Made by a program: the position numbers and the translations under genes
Source of the DNA: Gemmatimonadales bacterium
GTDB taxonomy: Bacteria; Gemmatimonadota; Gemmatimonadetes; Gemmatimonadales; GWC2-71-9
DNA: 64,000 bases
NCBI GenBank assembly: GCA_049680185.1
Contig: JBAUHI010000032.1
Coordinates: 3,767-67,766 of the forward strand
Direction: 5' to 3'
Notes under the pieces: generated by a model
Told to the model about the DNA's origin: nothing
The model's database searches: none
Seen by the model: only the letters and a program-made list of their open reading frames with translations
In this document: positions 6,926-60,993 of the stretch, in pieces
How positions within the stretch are numbered: the stretch's first letter is position 1
Layout of the letters: every line of letters begins with the position of its first letter

Positions 6926-7417
6926 ATGACCGCCGCTGAACGCCAGGCACTCATCCGCCAATACGCCGCCGGTCCCGCCAAGATCAAGGCGGCCCTCGCG
7001 CAGGTCCCCGCCGACGCACTGCAGTGGCGCCCGGGCCCGGGGAAATGGTCGGTCCATGAGATCGTGATCCACTGCGCCGACAGCGAGGTCCAGGCCCACA
7101 CGAGGATCCGGGCACTCCTGGCCGATGCCGATCCGGTCATCCACGCCTATGACCAGGACCGCTGGGCCGTCGCACTCGACTACCACCGACGCCCGCTCGC
7201 ACCGGCGCTCGCCACCATCGAGGCGGTCCGCGCCAACACCGTCGCGCTCATCGAATCGCTCACTGACGGGCAGTGGGCCCGTACCGGGCGCCATACGGAG
7301 TCAGGCCCCTTCTCGGCAGAAAAGTGGCTCACGATCTACGCCAAGCACCTCGATCAGGAGCGGCACGAAGGACAGATCCTGCGGAACCTGGAAGCGTGGC
7401 GCGGGCGGGGGAAGTAG
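6926..7417 (+). CDS. DinB-family (DinB_2) metal-dependent protein
   Basis: 163 aa. Four-helix DinB pattern with His residues in WSVHEIVIHCADSE and AKHLDQERHEGQI. Confidence 0.7.
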   Translation: MTAAERQALIRQYAAGPAKIKAALAQVPADALQWRPGPGKWSVHEIVIHCADSEVQAHTRIRALLADADPVIHAYDQDRWAVALDYHRRPLAPALATIEAVRANTVALIESLTDGQWARTGRHTESGPFSAEKWLTIYAKHLDQERHEGQILRNLEAWRGRGK

Positions 7418-7655
7418 GAGGAGGAGACGAGAGGAGAGGAGGCGATGGACGTGAGGAGGAGGTAAGGAATCAATGGTGGACTCGTGAGTCGCCGGCGACG
7501 TCATCCTGACACCGAGAGCCGCGCGGCCGAAGGATCGGCCAATCTGCCGATCGATCCTTCGGCCCTTCGGGCCTCAGGATGACGTGCTCGGAAAAGCCTC
7601 CCGCTCGCCTCTTCGCCTCCTCCCCTCTTCCTGCCTTTTCTCTTGATTCCCCCTC
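7418..7655. repeat. nested palindrome: purine-rich arm, GTCATCCTGA/GAAGGATCGG hairpin, pyrimidine-rich arm
   Basis: 7418-7469 is GAGGAGGAG-type purine tract. 7498-7538 is the left half of the core element and 7547-7585 its reverse complement. 7597-7655 is a CCTCCTC-type pyrimidine tract. It fills the gap between convergent genes. Confidence 0.85.
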
Positions 7656-7660
7656 GCGCG

Positions 7661-8299
7661 CTACTCGATCGGCACGTCGAACCGTACCTCGCGCTCGACC
7701 GGATACGAATAGTGCCACCACTCCATGTCGTACTGCTGGAACCCTTCCGCTTCCATCGCATGGCGGAGCAGGTCGCGGTCCGTGCGAGCCAGTCCGGTCG
7801 CGTTGGCCTCGTGGGCCTCGGGTGAGAAGGTGTCGAAGGGCGTCCCCATCTCGAGCGGACGCCCGGACTTCAAGTCGCGTAGGGTCAGGTCGATCGCCAG
7901 GCCCAAGTTATGGCGGCTCCGGCTGGCGATGTAGCCACCGGTCACCAGTTCCGGTCGGCCTACCCGCGAGGCCCACGCCACCATCTCGGCGGTGGCGCGG
8001 GCGGGCCGGTAGCTGTCGTAGATGAGGAGTCCGAGGCCCTGCCGGCGGAGCCGTGCCTCGACCCGCACCAGTGCGGCAGCGGCCTCGCGTCGAGTGAAGG
8101 CGCGATCGGCGGTGTATCCGGGAAGAGGCGCACCGGTGAAGTTGGAGTCGGTACGGTAGCGCAGGTCGACTGTGATGGTCGGATCGAGGGTGCGAACGTC
8201 GACCATCAGTGAATCGAATACGCGCTGATCGACCACAAGCGGCGTGGTGTCGGCAGGGGACTGCGGCGCGACGGCGAGGAGCAGGAGGAGAGGGAGCAT
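7661..8299 (-). CDS. D-alanyl-D-alanine dipeptidase (M15D, VanX/DdpX-like), secreted
   Basis: In-frame ATG 8299 gives signal-like MLPLLLLLAVAPQSPA. Zn-site motifs SRHNLGLAIDLTL and EWWHYSY. The longer ORF start at 8380 reads through the tandem repeat. Confidence 0.8.
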   Translation of the reverse strand: MLPLLLLLAVAPQSPADTTPLVVDQRVFDSLMVDVRTLDPTITVDLRYRTDSNFTGAPLPGYTADRAFTRREAAAALVRVEARLRRQGLGLLIYDSYRPARATAEMVAWASRVGRPELVTGGYIASRSRHNLGLAIDLTLRDLKSGRPLEMGTPFDTFSPEAHEANATGLARTDRDLLRHAMEAEGFQQYDMEWWHYSYPVEREVRFDVPIE

Positions 8300-8329
8300 G
8301 GGGGGAATATGGCTCGGATCGCCCCGGAC

Positions 8330-8496
8330 GTCATCCTGAGCAGAGCGAAAGATCGGCTGGCCTTCAGGGGTCCTCGTCATCCTGAGCAGAGCGAACGATC
8401 GGCTGGCCTTCAGGGGTCCTCGTCATCCTGAGCAGAGCGAAGGATCGGCTGGCCTTCAGGGGTCCTCGTCATCCTGAGCAGAGCGAAGGATCGGCC
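8330..8496. repeat. tandem array, 46-bp unit x 3.6
   Basis: Units at 8330, 8376, 8422 and 8468: GTCATCCTGAGCAGAGCGAANGATCGGCTGGCCTTCAGGGGTCCTC. They are identical except unit position 21 (A, C, G, G). The last unit is truncated 3 nt before the GIY-YIG stop codon. Confidence 0.95.
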
Positions 8497-8498
8497 CG

Positions 8499-8789
8499 CT
8501 ACCGAAGTTCTCCCAACTCGTCTGCACCAAGATCTCGCCACTCAGGGTTCGTGGCCTCGATGAGATCGACCTTCCGTTGACGCCGCCAACCCTTGAGCTG
8601 CCGCTCCCGCTCGACCATTGCCCGGGAAGACGGCGTCAACTCGAAATAGACCAGCCGATCGACCGAGTACCGATGAGTGAATCCCTCTCTCAGCCCCAGA
8701 CGGTGCTCTGCGACACGCTTGCGCAGGTCGGACGTCGAGCCGATGTACAACACCCGATTTCGATTGGCGAGGATGTAGACGTAGTACAC
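8499..8789 (-). CDS. GIY-YIG nuclease family protein (small stand-alone, COG2827-like)
   Basis: VYYVYILANRNRVLYIGSTSDLRKRVAEHRLG...RERQLKGWRRQRKVDLIEATNPEWRDL. I place the start at GTG 8789. The 59 upstream codons of ORF 8499..8966 are a translation of the flanking repeats (DVILSEAKDRP, HVILTPSAASGKDRP). Confidence 0.8.
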   Translation of the reverse strand: MYYVYILANRNRVLYIGSTSDLRKRVAEHRLGLREGFTHRYSVDRLVYFELTPSSRAMVERERQLKGWRRQRKVDLIEATNPEWRDLGADELGELR

Positions 8790-8805
8790 AGAGTCCTTGG
8801 TGGCG

Positions 8806-8893
8806 GGCCGATCCTTCCCGCTCGCTGCGCTCGGTGTCAGGATGACGTGCGCCGGAGCGACGGGCCGATCCTTCGCTTCGCTCAGGATGACGT
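8806..8893. repeat. two tandem right-half copies of the GTCATCCTGAG element (reverse complement orientation)
   Basis: 8806-8849 is GGCCGATCCTTC..GGTGTCAGGATGACGTG. 8862-8893 is GGGCCGATCCTTCGCTTCGCTCAGGATGACGTC. The reverse complement of the second matches the left-half unit at 8330-8496. Confidence 0.9.
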
Positions 8894-9022
8894 CGATCCT
8901 AAGGTCGGCTTCGGCATGTCGATAACCGAAATCGCGCACGGAGGCCCCGAAGATCGCCCACCGCATTGCGCCCCTCCGCTCCGGCCTGCATTATCGGGAA
9001 CCCATTTCTCCCGGATACCCCA

Positions 9023-10333
9023 ATGACCGATCGCCGCACCTTCCTCGCCGCCCTCGCCGCCCCGGCCGCCGCACGCGCCCTCAGCGTGCCCGCCGCCCAC
9101 CCCGCCGCGTCCCCGATCCTGGACGTCACCGACCCCCGGCCCCGGATGCCCGATCAGATCGGCGTCCGGGACGACGAGAAGTTCTGGAAGGAGCTGCGAC
9201 GCGAGTTCACGATCCCCAAGGACGAGGTGTTCTTCAATACCGGCACGATGGGATCGAGCCCCCGGATCGTGCAGGAGACGGTCATCGATCACATGCGCCA
9301 CGTCGACCGCGATGTGGCCCACTGGGACTACAAGGGCGACCACGAGCAGTACTTCACCGGCTACTTCAACGAACGCGGCTTTCGCGACCAACTGGGCCAG
9401 GTGCTCAACTGCAGCGGCAAGGACGTGGCCCTCTGTCAGAACGCCACGTTCGGGATGAACTTCGTCGCCAACGGGCTCGAACTCACTGCCGGTGACGAGG
9501 TGATCGTCACCGACCAGGCCCACCCCGGCGGCCGCAAAGGATTCGACCTCCGCGCCAAGCGGGAAGGGATCGTGGTGAAGGAAGTGAAGGTCCCCGACCC
9601 CGTCGCCTCACCCGACCAGCTCATCGACGGATTCACGGCCCTCACCACACCCAGGACCAAGGTCTGGGCCATCCCCCATATCTCCTCCGGCCGCGCCATC
9701 CGCTATCCGGTGGAGAAGCTCTGCGCCCTGGCCCACGACCGCGGCATCTTCTCCGCTGTGGACGGCGCCCAGGCGCTCGGCCATCTCGCCGTCGACGTGC
9801 AGGCGATGGGCTGCGACGCGTACTTCGGTTCTCCCCACAAGTGGATCCTGGCGCCCAAGGGCACCGGGTTCCTCTACGTCCGCCCCGAACGCCAGAAGGG
9901 ACTCTGGGCGACGCTCGCCTCGTTCGCATGGGATGATCAGGACGACCGGATGTTCGCCCTGATGCAATACGGCACCGGCAACCTGAGCCTGCTCAAGGGG
10001 CTCGGGAAGGCGATCGAGTTCCACCTCCAGATCGGCCCGAAGCGCGTCCAGGACCGGATCCTCGGTATGGCGGACCGGCTCCGGACCGCCCTCCAGGGTG
10101 TCCCGGGCGCCACCTTCGCCTCGCCGCTCCATCCCGACCTCACCTGCGCGTCGACGGTCTACGGGCTGAAGGGTGTCACCGGCGACGCGATCCAGGACTA
10201 CCTCTGGGACCACGGCAAGATCCGGGTCCGCAGCGAGGGCCCGGTCGGCGTTCGACACTGCTGCCACATCTACAACTCGCCGGCCGATGTGGACCGGGCG
10301 GTGGCGCTTCTGCGGTCGATGCCGCGGACGTAG
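9023..10333 (+). CDS. class V aminotransferase-fold PLP enzyme with Tat signal
   Basis: ATG 9023 gives MTDRRTFLAALAAPAAARALS, a twin-arginine motif. PLP-lysine context SPHKWILAPKGTGFLY. Confidence 0.8.
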   Translation: MTDRRTFLAALAAPAAARALSVPAAHPAASPILDVTDPRPRMPDQIGVRDDEKFWKELRREFTIPKDEVFFNTGTMGSSPRIVQETVIDHMRHVDRDVAHWDYKGDHEQYFTGYFNERGFRDQLGQVLNCSGKDVALCQNATFGMNFVANGLELTAGDEVIVTDQAHPGGRKGFDLRAKREGIVVKEVKVPDPVASPDQLIDGFTALTTPRTKVWAIPHISSGRAIRYPVEKLCALAHDRGIFSAVDGAQALGHLAVDVQAMGCDAYFGSPHKWILAPKGTGFLYVRPERQKGLWATLASFAWDDQDDRMFALMQYGTGNLSLLKGLGKAIEFHLQIGPKRVQDRILGMADRLRTALQGVPGATFASPLHPDLTCASTVYGLKGVTGDAIQDYLWDHGKIRVRSEGPVGVRHCCHIYNSPADVDRAVALLRSMPRT

Positions 10334-10385
10334 CAACTGCCTGAACCATCCCTCGCTGCGCCCGGGGTGGCGCAGCACAACACAC

Positions 10386-10578
10386 CACGGAGGCACGGAG
10401 GAACACGGAGCGGCACGGAGAACTACAGGTAACATGGGTGGCCAGCGGAAGCCCGTTCGTGAGGCAGCGTGACCGCGCTACCGTAACCCACGATCCCGGC
10501 CTGGAAGTTCGACCGACCACCCACACCACCAGCAGTCCTCCGTGCCTTGGCAGTTATTCTCCGTGCCTCCGTGTTCCG
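10386..10578. repeat. inverted CACGGAGG-type oligomer arms around a ~110-nt spacer
   Basis: Left arm 10386-10424 is CACGGAGGCACGGAGGAACACGGAGCGGCACGGAGAAC. Right arm 10536-10578 is GTCCTCCGTGCC..TTCTCCGTGCCTCCGTGTTCCG. Confidence 0.8.
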
Positions 10579-10680
10579 CGGTTGTTGTCGAGTCACGATC
10601 CTGGACAGCAAGAGCAGACCATTCCTCGACCGCTTCCGGCGCCCGCCACTCCTCCCCCTATCGCACCCACCGGGCGGGGT

Positions 10681-10741
10681 TATAATAGAAGGAGATATCA
10701 GCGGTCCCGGGCGGGAAGATGCCCGGGATCGTCTCCTTTTA
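10681..10741 (+). promoter_or_regulatory. greA leader: perfect -10 box, GC hairpin, T tract
   Basis: TATAAT at 10681-10686. Hairpin GGAGA..TCCCGGGC-gggaagat-GCCCGGGA..TCTCC at 10691-10736, followed by TTTTA. greA ATG is at 10761. Confidence 0.45.
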
Positions 10742-11618: not shown

Positions 11619-11704
11619 ACGTCATCCTGAGGACGCGCAGCGTTCGAAGGATCGGCCCATCACCTAGCCGATCCTTCGGCGCCTCCGGCGCCTCAGGATG
11701 ACGT
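11619..11704. repeat. compact hairpin copy of the GTCATCCTGAG/GAAGGATCGG element
   Basis: CACGTCATCCTGAGGACGCGCAGCGTTCGAAGGATCGGCCC..loop..GCCGATCCTTCGGCGCCTCCGGCGCCTCAGGATGACG. Followed by a pyrimidine tract at 11719-11747. Confidence 0.9.
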
Positions 11705-12106: not shown

Positions 12107-12660
12107 TGTGCTACCTCCTCCGTCTCGCGAGCCCGCTCACCTTGAGCGAGATCCGCTCGATGCTTCCCGCCGGGATGACCGCCGACCTGCGCGACGCCTC
12201 CGAACTCCGCCCCTGGCGCACCCTGCTCCCCGAGACCCAGACCGTCGCCGCCCTGCTCCACGGCGGTTGCTCTTGCGACCTCGTCCGTCCCGCCCCTCCG
12301 GACGCCAAGATCGACGGCGCCGAGATCCGCAGGCGTTACCGCGCGCTCGGCGCCAGCCGGACCACGGTCATCGATGCACTGGATCGCCACGCCCGGAACC
12401 GCTCCCTGCGGCAGTACGCCCCGGGACACTGGCCAGTGGCACTCAATCGCTTCGTGGCCGAGCATGCCAGGAACGCCGGGGACGCGGGGACAGGATACCT
12501 GCTGGAGTATGAGGCGGATGGACGAATGGACGGATGGGCGGATGCTCTCGGGCGCGTCCCCACCCGACCATCCGTCCATGCGCCCATCCGCCTGGCCGTA
12601 CCCGTCCGCCACGACCACGCATGGCTGGTGCCTGACCGGGTGATCATCGTGACTCCGTAG
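12106..12660 (+). CDS. hypothetical protein
   Basis: 184-aa ORF translationally coupled to the upstream gene. No motif recognised. The C-terminal region contains an in-frame palindromic repeat (12513-12592). Confidence 0.5.
   Translation: MCYLLRLASPLTLSEIRSMLPAGMTADLRDASELRPWRTLLPETQTVAALLHGGCSCDLVRPAPPDAKIDGAEIRRRYRALGASRTTVIDALDRHARNRSLRQYAPGHWPVALNRFVAEHARNAGDAGTGYLLEYEADGRMDGWADALGRVPTRPSVHAPIRLAVPVRHDHAWLVPDRVIIVTP
12513..12592. repeat. GGATGG-type palindrome inside a CDS
   Basis: GGCGGATGGACGAATGGACGGATGGGCGGATG at 12513-12544 versus CCCGACCATCCGTCCATGCGCCCATCCGCC at 12563-12592, an imperfect reverse complement. Confidence 0.8.
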
Positions 12661-26594: not shown

Positions 26595-26775
26595 GCTTGC
26601 AGCTATCGGCTGTCAGGTGCTCTAGAAACACACGAGCCTCCGTGGACCTCCACGGGGGCTCGCTGATTTAGTTCTGCCTGATAGCTGATAGCTGTTAGCT
26701 GATATCTGTTAGCTGCTAGCTGCTCGCTGCTCGCTGCTCGCTGCTCGCTGCTCGCTGCTAGCTGCAAGCTGCAAG
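26595..26775. repeat. AGCTGATAGCTG/GCTGCTC oligomer palindromic element
   Basis: The outermost GCTTGCAGCT (26595-26604) pairs with AGCTGCAAGC (26764-26773). Central hairpin GAGCCTCCGTG-gacctc-CACGGGGGCTC at 26635-26661. Long right arm of CTGATAGCTG and (GCTGCTC)n at 26678-26775. Confidence 0.85.
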
Positions 26776-28332
26776 CTACCCGCCCGCCTTTGCCACCGCC
26801 TCGCGCACATCCTTGTCGCTGTCCAACGCAAGTTCCGCCAGCGCCGCCTGCGCCACGGGGCCGCCGGCCAGCTGCAGCCCCTCGATGGCCCAGATCCGCT
26901 GCGCCACCGGCTTCCGCTTGAAGAGCTTTCCGCCGGGACTCGCCATCCGGATCAGCGCTTGCACCCCCTCGGCCGATCCGCTCCGCCCCACCGAGTAGCA
27001 CACCTCGCGAAGGACCTCGGGCACGCTCTCTTCTTCCAGGATCGACACCAACCGGAGTCCGAGCGCCGGGAGCTTCTTCCCGTCGATCACCAACACGGCC
27101 TGCAAGCGCACCCCCGGCGCTGGATCCCGGAGTGCCGTGCGCAGTGGCTCGACGGTGCCGGGGGTGCCGATCTTGGCGAGCGCCACGATCGCGGCGCGCT
27201 TGACCCGCTCATCGGGGTGGGTCACATGTCGCGCCAGCACCGGCACCGCCGTCACGAGCTTGAGCTCACCGCACAGCTCCGCCACGTTCCGGATCACGAA
27301 CCAGTCGCCATGTTCCAGCGTCTTGACGACGACATCCGATCCGTGGGCCGACTCGACCAGCGCGTCAAAATAGTGGCGCCGCTCGATGATGGTGGGTGCT
27401 GAGGCCAGAAGGTCGAGCAACACGTCGGTGGCACTGTCGCCCATCCGGGCCATCACCAGCAATGCGTCGCGCTTGCGCTCGGGTTGCGGCACGAAACGCG
27501 CGATCTCCTCCAGCGTCCTCCGTGGGAGGAGCCGCTTGAGCGCGATGTTGTACATCCGTGCCACTTCCTTCGACCCCGCCTGCGGCTCCGCCTCCACCAC
27601 CCGCACCGCCGCACGGAGGATCCCGTCCCAGTCGGCCTTGAGCGCCGCGGCGTCAGCGCTCCCGGCCAACTCGCTGAGCAAGTGGGTCACGGCGGCGCCG
27701 GCGGGATCCGCGGCGATCGCCAGCGAGAGCTCGTCGATCCGGGCGGTCACGTCGTTGGCCGAAGGGACATAGTGCATCATCCCGCCGTCCTCGGGTGTCA
27801 TCCCACCAGGGCCGAGTGCCGGCAGCTCGACCGAACCACGCGGCGGTGCCGACCCGATCACCTTCCGTGGCACCTCTCGTGGCGGGCCTGCCGTCGCTGC
27901 ATCGGTGGACCCCAGCGCTGACACGGCCGGGCCCGACGACTCTGCCGCCGCCAGCCGGAACTGGCTCGCGCCCGGCTCGCCGACCGCGGTGATGAACTCT
28001 TGGATGTGACGATAGGTGCCGGCGGGCGCCGCAAGCGCCCGCAGGAGCGAGAGGAGCGGTCCCGCGCCGGTGCCTTCCGGCAGGATGATCTCGCCGACGC
28101 CGTGCTGCAGCATCTGGCGAGCGAACGCCGCTGCCTCGGTGGCTTCTTCCGGTGCCAGGATGCCCTGGTACGCCAGCCCCTCGGACGTGGCGCCCAACTC
28201 CACCGGGCTCACACCCAGCGTGGTCACGAGCGCGCGGAACGCCGCCTTGTGCTCCTCCTTCGCGCCAGGACGATCGCGCAGAAGGACGACGACATTCCAG
28301 ATCTCGGAGACCACCGACAGGGGAGCGCTCAT
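26776..28332 (-). CDS. HEAT-repeat protein
   Basis: 518 aa. The C-terminal half has PVLARHVTHPDERVKRAAIVALAKIG, LRDPAPGVRLQAV and DSDKDVREAVAKA repeats. The N-terminal half is unassigned. Confidence 0.65.
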   Translation of the reverse strand: MSAPLSVVSEIWNVVVLLRDRPGAKEEHKAAFRALVTTLGVSPVELGATSEGLAYQGILAPEEATEAAAFARQMLQHGVGEIILPEGTGAGPLLSLLRALAAPAGTYRHIQEFITAVGEPGASQFRLAAAESSGPAVSALGSTDAATAGPPREVPRKVIGSAPPRGSVELPALGPGGMTPEDGGMMHYVPSANDVTARIDELSLAIAADPAGAAVTHLLSELAGSADAAALKADWDGILRAAVRVVEAEPQAGSKEVARMYNIALKRLLPRRTLEEIARFVPQPERKRDALLVMARMGDSATDVLLDLLASAPTIIERRHYFDALVESAHGSDVVVKTLEHGDWFVIRNVAELCGELKLVTAVPVLARHVTHPDERVKRAAIVALAKIGTPGTVEPLRTALRDPAPGVRLQAVLVIDGKKLPALGLRLVSILEEESVPEVLREVCYSVGRSGSAEGVQALIRMASPGGKLFKRKPVAQRIWAIEGLQLAGGPVAQAALAELALDSDKDVREAVAKAGG

Positions 28333-33128: not shown

Positions 33129-33348
33129 GAAGCGATCGGCTAACGGCGGCTATCAGCTATCGGCTATCAGCTATCGGCTGACAGCCAACTGCTCTGGCTA
33201 TCGGTTGTCAGCGATCAGCGGGCCCGAACGCGAGCAAGCCCCCGGCGTCTACGTCGGAGGCTTGGTTGTCACAGGAGCGTGCTGATAGCTGATGGCTGAT
33301 AGCTGATAGCTGCTAGCTCCTAGCTGATAACTGCTAGCCTCGAAGACC
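33129..33348. repeat. AGCTGATAGCTG oligomer palindromic element (second copy of family)
   Basis: Left arm 33131-33219 (CTATCAGCTATCGGCTATCAGCTATCGGCTGACAGCC...). Central hairpin AAGCCCCCG..CGGAGGCTT at 33236-33263. Right arm 33281-33339 (GCTGATAGCTGATGGCTGATAGCTGATAGCTG...). Confidence 0.85.
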
Positions 33349-40503: not shown

Positions 40504-41289
40504 GTGCCTGCCTCCCCTTCCGTCGCTTGGTCCCAGGTCGCCCGCGCCTACCAGCGCAACATCCTCCCCGGGTTCACTCCGGCGGCGGCGGCCTTGTGCA
40601 CTGCCCTGCGGGTCGGCGCCGGTGATCGAGTGCTGGATGTCGCCTGCGGCCCTGGAACGCTGTCGCTCGCAGCCCTGCGTCAGGGCGCGGAGCAGGTCAC
40701 CGGCGTCGATTTCGCGGCCGAGATGGTAGCGCTCGCCCAGGGCGCGACGGTCGGGAGCAACGCCGAGTTCTTCCTCGGCGATGCCACGGGGCTGCCGGTA
40801 CAGGATGGTTCGTTCGATGTGGCGGCTTCGAGCTTCGGCCTCATCTTCGCGCCCGATCCCCGGCGCGCGATGAGCGAACTCCATCGCGCACTCGTGCCTG
40901 GCGGACGGGCCGGGCTCATCGCCTGGCTGCGGGGCGATACCACCAACGCGTACTACGACCGGGTGTATCACCACCTCCCGCGGCCCACCACCACCCACGA
41001 CCCCTACGCTTGGGGTGATCGCGCCACCGCCCGCACCTGGTTCGGTGAATGGTTCGGCTACCTCGAACTGGCGACCATCACCGTGCCCTACGAAGGTCCG
41101 TCCCCCGCGGCGGTGTGGGAGGTGCTCCGCACCTCGACCGGCAGGGTGGCCGTGGCCTACGCGGCCCTCGACCGCGCCGCGCAGGAGCGGATGGATCGAG
41201 AGATGATCGATTTCTTCGAGCGGTTCCGCCGCCCCGAGGGCGGCATCTATTGGCCCCGCGAGGCGTTGATGATCACGGGGACGAAGTAG
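40504..41289 (+). CDS. class I SAM-dependent methyltransferase
   Basis: Motif I VLDVACGPGT. DGSFDVAASSFGLIF. GTG start. Confidence 0.8.
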   Translation: MPASPSVAWSQVARAYQRNILPGFTPAAAALCTALRVGAGDRVLDVACGPGTLSLAALRQGAEQVTGVDFAAEMVALAQGATVGSNAEFFLGDATGLPVQDGSFDVAASSFGLIFAPDPRRAMSELHRALVPGGRAGLIAWLRGDTTNAYYDRVYHHLPRPTTTHDPYAWGDRATARTWFGEWFGYLELATITVPYEGPSPAAVWEVLRTSTGRVAVAYAALDRAAQERMDREMIDFFERFRRPEGGIYWPREALMITGTK

Positions 41290-41490
41290 GTGAACGATGA
41301 AAAGTGAAAGGTGAACTGGATCTGGATGCGCTCGGCGGCCCGCTGATCACACGTCATCCTGAGGGGCCTTCAGGCCCCGAAGGACCGGCCTGCATAACGA
41401 CCCGATCCTTCGCTCTGCTCAGGATGACGTGCCTGTCCCGTCGGTCCCTTCCGATCCCACCCGTTCACCGTTGACCGTTTACCGTTCACC
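41289..41490. repeat. nested palindrome: GTGAAC-type outer arms around a GTCATCCTGAG/GAAGGA hairpin
   Basis: Outer left arm 41289-41319 is GGTGAACGATGAAAAGTGAAAGGTGAACTGG. Inner element at 41351-41430. Outer right arm 41457-41490 is CACCCGTTCACCGTTGACCGTTTACCGTTCACCC. Confidence 0.85.
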
Positions 41491-60523: not shown

Positions 60524-60632
60524 TACCGGTGGACGGTGAAGAGTGAACAGTGAACAGTGAACGGGGGCCTCCGTGGGATCTGCCAAGCTCCCGTTCACCG
60601 TTCCCCGTTCACCGTTGACGCCCTTGCCCGTT
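60521..60632. repeat. GTGAACGGTGAA-type palindromic element, copy 1
   Basis: Begins with TGATACCGGTGGACGGTGAAGAGTGAACAGTGAACAGTGAACGGG. Loop contains GCCTCCGTGG. Right arm is CCCGTTCACCGTTCCCCGTTCACCGTTGAC. Confidence 0.9.
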
Positions 60633-60874: not shown

Positions 60875-60993
60875 GATACCGGTGAACGGTAAACGGTGAA
60901 GGGTGAACAGTGAACGGTGAACGGGGCGCCCAGCGGATCTTCGTGGGCGACCCGTTCACCGTTTCCATTTCACCGTTCACCGTTCCCGTTCAC
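60874..60993. repeat. GTGAACGGTGAA-type palindromic element, copy 2 (direct repeat of copy 1)
   Basis: Begins with TGATACCGGTGAACGGTAAACGGTGAAGGGTGAACAGTGAACGGTGAACGGGG. Right arm is CCCGTTCACCGTTTCCATTTCACCGTTCACCGTTCCCGTTCAC. Confidence 0.9.

Follow-up and report, generated by a model that had tools for sequence, protein, structure and literature searches.

The closest described relative of the locus analysed here is the Ssn system, in which small nucleases recognise short hairpin repeats. Members of the Ssn family are single-domain GIY-YIG proteins of ~94 amino acids (aa; GIY-YIG_unchar_3, which is cd10448 in CDD) that bind their hairpin repeat as single-stranded DNA (ssDNA) only, with neither RNA nor double-stranded DNA (dsDNA) serving as a substrate, and that cut a few nucleotides upstream of the repeat; their genes are usually repeat-flanked (Chenal et al, 2025, Nat Commun, PMC11893778). 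The enzymes studied are those of Neisseria, N. elongata, N. wadsworthii and Wolbachia. The Neisseria repeat is called NTS (CGTCATTCCCGCGMAVGCGGGAATCYRG), to which about half of the Neisseria dRS3 copies belong, and the general term is Ssn-related motif (SRM). Mutagenesis has shown that cleavage is governed by three nucleotides 5′ of the palindrome, that the key base for binding is the C just 3′ of it and that the stem sequence matters; the identity of the loop is inessential, the loop may be deleted, and extensions, among them complementary ones that make the stem longer, are tolerated in its place (PMC11893778). Here, we describe a family of short repeats and a nuclease gene in 64,000 nucleotides (nt) of DNA from a soil Gemmatimonadales metagenome-assembled genome (contig JBAUHI010000032.1, positions 3,767 to 67,766; this whole stretch is called the window). 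The window locus is a further example of the known Ssn/SRM system and not a new kind of element, and each repeat arm is, judging from sequence, very probably one SRM, the hairpin signal of an Ssn-family GIY-YIG nuclease encoded in the window.

An earlier note, made from the letters of the window, had described 88-nt copies with conserved boxes and variable, self-complementary inserts, and had predicted for them a branched fold, a cruciform with side hairpins. All strings that it quoted are present in 7498–7585, 11619–11704 and 41351–41430, and the copies are real, but the unit of the family is a single arm, since units also occur as a 46-bp tandem array and on both sides of a gene. We use “unit” for a single arm, “pair” for two inverted units and “cassette” for units with the gene they enclose. 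Across the window the unit has the form CGTC-ATCCT-GA-G-(5–19 nt)-C-GA-AGGAT-CGG, and the stretch of 5–19 nt between the boxes varies from copy to copy and between the two arms of one pair. A regular-expression search and a covariance model run with its filters off agree exactly on 12 units, which the model scores at 27.7–48.1 bits, the next-best match reaching 13 bits. The string GTCATCCTGA occurs 12 times exactly, these copies being the family, and 24 times at one mismatch or fewer against 5.2 expected, in a window with a G+C content of 64–71%. Units form three convergent inverted pairs, A (7498–7585), B (11619–11704) and C (41351–41430), and the fourth locus is the cassette (8328–8893). Pair A reads, in order, ACGTCATCCTGA, 19 nt, GAAGGATCGGCC, aatct, GCCGATCGATCCTTC, 13 nt and TCAGGATGACGT, and the cassette comprises a four-unit 46-bp tandem array, a minus-strand open reading frame (ORF) and two units in the opposite orientation. 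The features are:

7500–7538, plus strand: left unit of pair A, GTCATCCTGA-CACCGAGAGCCGCGCGGCC-GAAGGATCGG, with an insert of 19 nt at the apex and a weak apical stem (28.1 bits and E 4e-6 in the covariance model).
7551–7583, minus strand: right unit of pair A, GTCATCCTGAG-GCCC gaa GGGC-CGAAGGATCGA (29.7 bits), with a basal stem, a 2×2 GA/GA loop and an apical stem in the computed single-arm DNA fold.
8330–8356, 8376–8402, 8422–8448 and 8468–8494, plus strand: four tandem basal units, the left cassette flank (41–48 bits).
8499–8789, minus strand: ssn gene, probably starting at a GTG and encoding a single-domain GIY-YIG nuclease of 96 aa (MYYVYILANRNR...).
8808–8846, minus strand: inner unit of the right cassette flank, with a 19-nt insert (CACCGAGCGCAGCGAGCGG; 27.7 bits).
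8865–8891, minus strand: outer basal unit of the right cassette flank, GTCATCCTGAGCGAAGCGAAGGATCGG (46.8 bits).
11621–11655, plus strand: left unit of pair B, apical stem GACGC gca GCGTT.
11668–11702, minus strand: right unit of pair B, apical stem GCGCC gga GGCGC.
41353–41388, plus strand: left unit of pair C, apical stem GGGCC ttca GGCCC, right box GAAGGACC.
41402–41428, minus strand: right unit of pair C, basal form with GCAGAGC at the apex (47.6 bits).

Tandem Repeats Finder places the tandem array at 8329–8495 (period 46, 3.6 copies, 98% matches), and in two of its four units (GAAAGATC, GAACGATC) a substitution breaks a basal-stem pair.

Which strands pair with each other can be read from related units in other genomes. 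A scan of a genome collection with the pattern CGTCATCCTGA-N(4-34)-GAAGGAYCGG matched at least 116 loci (numbered with an L below), from Gemmatimonadales, Verrucomicrobiota, Acidobacteriota, Alphaproteobacteria, Chloroflexota, Actinomycetota and others, and the listed loci together with the window hold at least 258 units; all counts across genomes given from here on are counts among the matches listed. The alignment of basal units from these loci and the window is gap-free and holds 34 distinct sequences. Compensatory double changes are present in 23 units, at four of the five basal pairs (ATCCT/AGGAT to ATCCC/GGGAT, ATTCT/AGAAT, ATGCT/AGCAT or ACCCT/AGGG), and in 2 units both boxes have changed with no restored pair. 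In the alignment, the hairpin .......(((((..((...))..)))))..... has 92% of its cells paired, four of its seven pairs vary on both sides, and such two-sided changes affect 14 cells where 2.5 are expected, a value reached by 0 of 500 shuffles; when the partner columns are slid, pairing falls to 26–48%. Positions G13, A14, G22 and A23 are invariant, as is GTCAT, and the C past the palindrome is at least 90% conserved. Because the changes are matched within the same arm and not in the other arm, box 1 appears to pair with box 2 of its own arm. The two arms of at least 10 pairs moreover carry different basal-stem variants, each arm still being paired internally (positions 558/613 in L019, 3428/3489 in L011, 2579/2656 in L039, 480/544 in L065 and 6142/6225 in L008), so pairing between arms does not seem to be maintained, and some arms stand singly, in tandem or with their relative orientation reversed, or enclose a gene at a distance of ~300 nt from each other. 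This covariation argues that a single hairpin makes up each arm, its base conserved in sequence and its apical extension free to vary. The two boxes of the earlier note are accordingly partners inside an arm, not the arms of a cruciform.

The conserved G-A/G-A steps between the two helices of the unit would fit a tandem G·A mismatch rather than an open loop. Mini-hairpins of the d(GCGAAGC) type, with their Y-GA-R tandem sheared G·A pairs, are reported to be unusually stable in ssDNA in work of Hirao et al. in 1994 and of Chou, Zhu and Reid in 1997, and the basal unit has in common with them the GC-GNA-GC tip and the tandem G·A steps T-GA-G/C-GA-A. Such oligonucleotides are physical-chemistry models and not genomic elements, and their relevance to the unit is an inference.

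The apical part follows a different rule from the base. Taking the 82 distinct inserts, drawn from many phyla, that are 12 nt or longer, begin with G and finish with C, the longest perfect hairpin stem averages 4.73 bp against 3.24 bp after shuffling (z = 15), and 0 of 1000 shuffles reach this value. The proposal that structure is conserved while sequence varies is borne out by these inserts, whose self-complementarity goes beyond chance and beyond that of shuffled controls. When folded singly against their own shuffles, the inserts give a mean z of −1.26, with 35% at p ≤ 0.05, a comparison that has low power on short GC-rich strings, and the pooled longest-perfect-stem statistic was used in its place. 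The 82 inserts contain 48 different stem sequences, with GCA and GAA as the commonest loops, and insert subfamilies differ by lineage: the tip of the basal form is GC-GNA-GC, a subfamily in Verrucomicrobia has GCGNAGC-stem-GCGNAGTC, and an alphaproteobacterial one has GAGG-N-stem-N-(C/T)CTC. The 19-nt spacer of the 46-bp tandem array (CTGGCCTTCAGGGGTCCT) has GGCCTTCAGG in common with the left apical insert of pair C (41353–41388; GGGGCCTTCAGGCCCC), which suggests that small hairpin modules may be exchanged between loop positions and inter-unit spacers.

The protein encoded in the cassette links these repeats to the Ssn family. Its only detected domain is Pfam PF01541 (GIY-YIG; E 6e-15). In a tblastn search of a plasmid collection (7.3 Gb) it matches one place in each of two N. 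gonorrhoeae chromosomes (E 2e-20), where the ORF is 53% identical to it over 88 aa (pairwise E 2e-30). We take this gonococcal match to be the ssnA locus because 9 NTS copies surround it within 1.46 kb; annotation was not the basis. Residues Y5, Y15 and E62 of the window protein align with the gonococcal residues that correspond to Y6, Y17 and E64, with the N. meningitidis numbering transferred by inference, and these are the positions of the published mutants Y6A, Y17A and E64A. The published criterion for an Ssn homologue, tblastn E < 1e-10 (PMC11893778), includes the window protein. NCBIfam offers no specific model for it, only a sub-threshold match, and its only relative in the PDB is the UPF0213 protein 1ZG2 (E 2e-4). 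Public data annotate a longer ORF of 155 aa (P0001; ATG at 8966, minus strand, 8499–8966), the first 59 residues of which are two units and their spacer in translation (…VILSEAKDRP…HVILTPSAASGKDRP…; VILTPSAASGKDRP). Because homologues are mostly 93–101 aa long and the 155-aa ORF translates two units, the real start is probably GTG 8789, with a product of 96 aa, and the long form probably an over-extended annotation. A reading of the repeats as coding sequence, which the run of this ORF through two units could have offered, was set aside. Annotated GIY-YIG proteins probably often have N- or C-terminal tails that derive from repeats. As side observations, the two gonococcal chromosomes, each of 2.17 Mb, are entered in the plasmid collection as if they were plasmids, and in one of them (L206, NZ_CP119142.1 1881119–1882582) the ssnA-homologous frame, which runs from ~598, is not the frame of the ATG at L206:594; this ssnA gene may be frameshifted at its start, and the PLSDB gene table, incomplete for that record (17 features), has no feature under it.

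How does the window locus compare with the described Ssn/SRM system? Both have a single-domain GIY-YIG protein of about 95 aa and a gene with repeats on both sides, and the window protein is a homologue of SsnA, 53% identical to the Neisseria protein, with equivalents of the catalytic residues. The units are oriented hairpins of 20–50 nt with a 5′ GTC before and a C after the palindrome; conservation is focused on the basal stem together with the 5′ GTC and the 3′ C, extensions are tolerated where the loop lies, and hundreds of intergenic copies are expected. NTS, its variant NTSvar (CGTCATACTCGGGNNNNNCCCGAGTATC) and the window family have one scaffold in common, CGTCAT, a 7-nt half-stem, a loop, a complementary half-stem and ATC, realised as CGTCAT-TCCCGCG-...-GCGGGA-ATC in NTS, CGTCAT-ACTCGGG-N5-CCCGAGT-ATC in NTSvar and CGTCAT-CCTGAGC-GNA-GCGAAGG-ATC in the window family. 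There are differences too: the window stem is ATCCTGAGC/GCGAAGGAT with a tandem G·A mismatch, in contrast to ATTCCCGC/GCGGGAAT; natural apical extensions reach ~35 nt in the window's family; the units are mostly convergent inverted pairs, with the GTC ends of the cassette pointing outward, whereas they point inward at the Neisseria gene; and the host is a soil Gemmatimonadales, the 25-nt basal unit recurring across many phyla. Literature searches for the exact repeat sequence and its encoded peptide (VILSEAKDL) returned nothing relevant.

The arrangement of units around ssn recurs in other genomes. The listed loci contain five more GIY-YIG ORFs with homology to the window protein, four of them between a plus-strand and a minus-strand unit, and two homologues fetched independently (L117, which is AT-rich, and L125) also lie between units. 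The order unit-ssn-unit is found in the window (four units on the left, two on the right), in the Gemmatimonadales locus L062, in L111, twice in the alphaproteobacterial L051, and in L117 and L125. The two cassettes of L051 are 2.4 kb apart and homologous exactly from the outer GTC to the outer GAC, with arms ~98% and genes ~78% identical and with unrelated flanks, so that the cassette appears to be a discrete module bounded by units. For 72% of units a neighbouring unit lies within 150 nt; of 91 adjacent pairs, 66 are convergent, with their 3′ ends facing, 20 divergent (head-to-head) and 5 tandem. Convergent gaps of 229–317 nt are ssn cassettes, and the 80–88-nt elements have the geometry of a cassette without the gene. 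Two more distant homologues are worth recording. In Planktothrix agardhii plasmid p1 (L208, NZ_LR882964.1 18356–19628) an ssn homologue of ~50% identity is accompanied by units of the window's family (GTCATTCTGAG…GAAGAATC), including three tandem half-units, and lies inside a defence island, with an MmeI-type restriction-modification gene on one side and DISARM drmA on the other. In Sinorhizobium meliloti pSymB (L207, CP090106.1 1664201–1665461) the hairpin flanking the ssn homologue is a different one (CCTCATCCCTGTG…CACAGGGATGAG), a case that points to repeat and enzyme diverging together.

In the explanation that we consider very probable, an SRM would be a short hairpin formed in ssDNA and acting as an oriented signal for binding and cleavage by a small Ssn-family GIY-YIG nuclease. 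A unit is built as (C)GTC / ATCCT / GA / G(C) ... apical part ... (G)C / GA / AGGAT / C(GG), where box 1 and box 2 form the two strands of the basal stem ATCCT/AGGAT, followed by the invariant tandem G.A/A.G, and where the unpaired 5′ GTC and 3′ C orient the site. Basal stem, GTC and C would be conserved because they are read by sequence; the apical part would need only to fold back and join the two halves, and would for that reason be free in length and sequence as long as it is self-complementary. The cognate nuclease (8499–8789, minus strand) would be the one encoded in the unit-gene-unit cassette, 900 nt from pair A, and the three 80–88-nt elements are gene-less inverted pairs that would be either non-autonomous relatives or deletion derivatives of the cassette. 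By analogy with the published Neisseria, N. elongata, N. wadsworthii and Wolbachia enzymes, the window protein would bind the units as ssDNA and cut a few nucleotides 5′ of GTC. Candidate cellular roles are restriction of incoming ssDNA, spread of the repeat, or both.

Several observations weigh against this explanation. The published degenerate SRM pattern, HGTCWYN(0-2)YYVSBRHN(0-5)WNVSBRGN(0-2)RNCYNB (PMC11893778), fits the NTS consensus but 0 of the 258 units, and membership of the repeats in the class rests for this reason on scaffold and context. Single-arm DNA folds give the expected hairpin in eight of nine arms, at modest energies; the exception is 7500–7538, which lacks the canonical fold, and the apical stems of 7500–7538 and 8808–8846 are weak. 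With nearest-neighbour DNA parameters basal units fold at only −3 to −4 kcal/mol, no better than shuffles, so that thermodynamics alone lends the hairpin no support, and it is the covariation that does. Finally, the nearest units at the Neisseria and Planktothrix genes face the opposite way, with their GTC ends towards the gene, and the cassette geometry is therefore lineage-specific and not universal.

Could the repeats be something other than SRMs? Selection might act on the fold of an RNA, with pairs transcribed in 3′ untranslated regions and working as terminators or 3′-end stabilisers, a role that has been proposed for repetitive extragenic palindromic (REP) sequences. The units are indeed intergenic, pair A lies between convergent genes, pairs B and C begin 20 and 62 nt past a stop codon, and the computed folds of whole pairs are strong (−28 to −37 kcal/mol, z −5 to −8.6). 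Yet the stems, continued by GTGCTCGG, GTTTCGTC and GTGCCTGT, have no T-run after them, and a scan for intrinsic terminators reports no unit or pair; Rfam gives 0 matches at the gathering score over the whole window, and at E up to 1 only generic microRNA-precursor hairpin models overlap units, with an unrelated small-RNA model (Actino-ugpB) inside ssn. The cassette moreover sits in a divergent promoter region and not at a 3′ end, the conserved unpaired GTC and C and the conserved G·A pairs indicate recognition by a protein, and Ssn enzymes do not act on RNA (PMC11893778). We regard the RNA-level explanation as improbable, although the units may have a secondary effect on transcripts. The earlier note had left selection at the ssDNA or the RNA level side by side; selection on a single strand remains the best reading, and within it ssDNA fits better than RNA, the associated family being an ssDNA-only nuclease. 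The branched cruciform proposed in the same note, in which the whole 88-nt element extrudes as a single unit, each box pairs with its counterpart in the other arm (1 with 1′, 2 with 2′), the inserts stand out as side hairpins and the four-way shape is selected, fares worse, and we think it very unlikely as the conserved fold. For each of the three pairs, on either strand, the computed fold of minimum energy has this shape, and the closeness and mostly convergent orientation of neighbouring units (66 of 91 adjacent pairs) would suit it, but any inverted repeat yields a branched minimum-energy fold; compensatory changes fall within arms and not between them, partner arms with different basal-stem variants would mismatch in an inter-arm stem, and units also stand in tandem (8330–8494), head-to-head (20 cases) and ~300 nt apart around ssn.

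The remaining alternatives concern how the elements and their inserts arose. The palindromic inserts could be a mutational by-product, either of fold-back synthesis at a nicked hairpin tip or of the nesting of mini-hairpin modules by insertion or duplication; only the way in which inserts arose is at issue here, and the idea is compatible with the SRM identity of the units. Many apical stems are perfect palindromes, inserts often repeat a GAGC-GNA-GCGA core (for example CCCC-GAGCGCAGCGA-GGGG in L035 and GCGAAGC-GTA-GCGAAGTC in L011), and the string common to the tandem-array spacer and the insert of 41353–41388 points the same way. Loops are nevertheless biased to GNA, with GCA and GAA commonest, purine internal loops are conserved within subfamilies, and the covariation of the basal stem shows that selection on pairing operates in these units. 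We consider a purely mutational origin of the inserts less likely than not. Movement as a miniature inverted-repeat transposable element (MITE) of the terminal-inverted-repeat type by a DDE transposase, or as a REP or bacterial interspersed mosaic element (BIME) by a REP-associated tyrosine transposase (RAYT), is hardly credible here. The elements are short, multicopy and intergenic, and have perfect terminal inverted repeats of 13–14 nt (ACGTCATCCTGAG), but no target-site duplication is seen at the four loci, the three pairs and the cassette; the only gene between arms, in the window and in five other loci, encodes a GIY-YIG nuclease; and the repeated unit is a single arm, found alone and in tandem. 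No RAYT or Y1 gene is flanked by units in the window, which was not exhaustively screened for transposase or RAYT genes. REP/BIME sequences with their RAYTs, which are IS200/IS605-like Y1 transposases, do resemble the present system in being intergenic hairpin repeats recognised as ssDNA, often in inverted pairs and mosaics, with the gene of the cognate enzyme repeat-flanked; they differ in the enzyme, a GIY-YIG nuclease here and not an HUH/Y1 transposase, and there is no evidence of DNA joining. Neisseria dRS3, intergenic mosaic elements and Correia-type MITEs are likewise short palindromic repeats clustered between genes in mosaic arrangement, but they differ in sequence and organism, and Correia elements have target-site duplications and are ~150 nt long.

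The genomic surroundings of the units can be compared with those in related loci. All window units are intergenic: pair A lies between the convergent genes for DinB_2 (6926–7417, plus strand) and a D-Ala-D-Ala dipeptidase (7661–8299, minus strand), the cassette between the divergent dipeptidase and class-V aminotransferase genes, in their divergent promoter region, pair B downstream of a Cpn10-like ORF, and pair C between a methyltransferase gene and a DUF255 thioredoxin-like gene. In 80 metagenomic loci (298 kb) with a homologous dipeptidase (58–68% identity), neither the regular expression nor the covariance model finds any unit. The sole clearly syntenic locus of these 80, L182, matches the window at 3.7–12.7 kb and has much shorter spacers at all three positions compared: 15 nt against 243 nt between dipeptidase and DinB, 317 nt against 2419 nt between dipeptidase and greA, where it has neither the ssn cassette nor the aminotransferase, and ~60 nt against ~205 nt past the Cpn10-like ORF. 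L182 is too diverged from the window for insertion boundaries to be defined, but because of these shorter spacers and the lack of units at the 80 dipeptidase loci, the units and the low-complexity DNA around them appear to be lineage-specific. Between dipeptidase and greA, the window (8300–10718) holds ~2.1 kb more than L182 (2184–2500), and the ssn cassette and the class-V aminotransferase gene (8966–10333) may have arrived together.

The window also contains a second class of intergenic structure, in which short tandem repeats are arranged as inverted arrays and long hairpins would form. Their repeats are mostly 7 nt long (GGTGAAC/GTTCACC, GCTATCA/TGATAGC), and AGGAG-rich tracts facing CTCCT-rich ones also occur. 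The arrays lie at 7396–7445 versus 7601–7664, 12515–12544 versus 12559–12592, 26678–26777, 33149–33179 versus 33281–33338, 41289–41319 versus 41460–41490, 60536–60562 versus 60591–60616 and 60880–60924 versus 60952–60993. Pairs A and C stand at the centre of two of them, and the other arrays are without SRMs; one idea is that SRM pairs insert at hairpin tips.

In conclusion, the Ssn/SRM system was first described in 2025 and has been studied in Neisseria and three other enzymes, and the window locus with the 258 related units adds comparative evidence for a hairpin within one arm, in which the base and the unpaired flanks would be the part read by sequence and the tip would be under structural constraint only. 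The natural variable tips are the counterpart of the published loop-replacement experiments. Since the widespread class of SRM found in the window escapes the published search pattern, censuses that use this pattern would undercount SRMs. None of these results overturns the current understanding of the system. Cassette boundaries fall at the outer ends of the units, a point of relevance to the unproven idea of a mobile system. Tentatively, and with less than even confidence, we consider that cassette and gene-less pairs could be the autonomous and non-autonomous forms of a mobile element that moves via ssDNA with a GIY-YIG nuclease; to our knowledge, transposition chemistry of this kind, through ssDNA and by a GIY-YIG nuclease, has not yet been described. 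If this were true, one near-invariant 25-nt basal hairpin would have spread through at least six phyla that have names, with AT-rich cyanobacteria at one extreme and Gemmatimonadales of 67% GC at the other, and the variable apical stems would record either the lineage of the element or fold-back repair at the hairpin tip.

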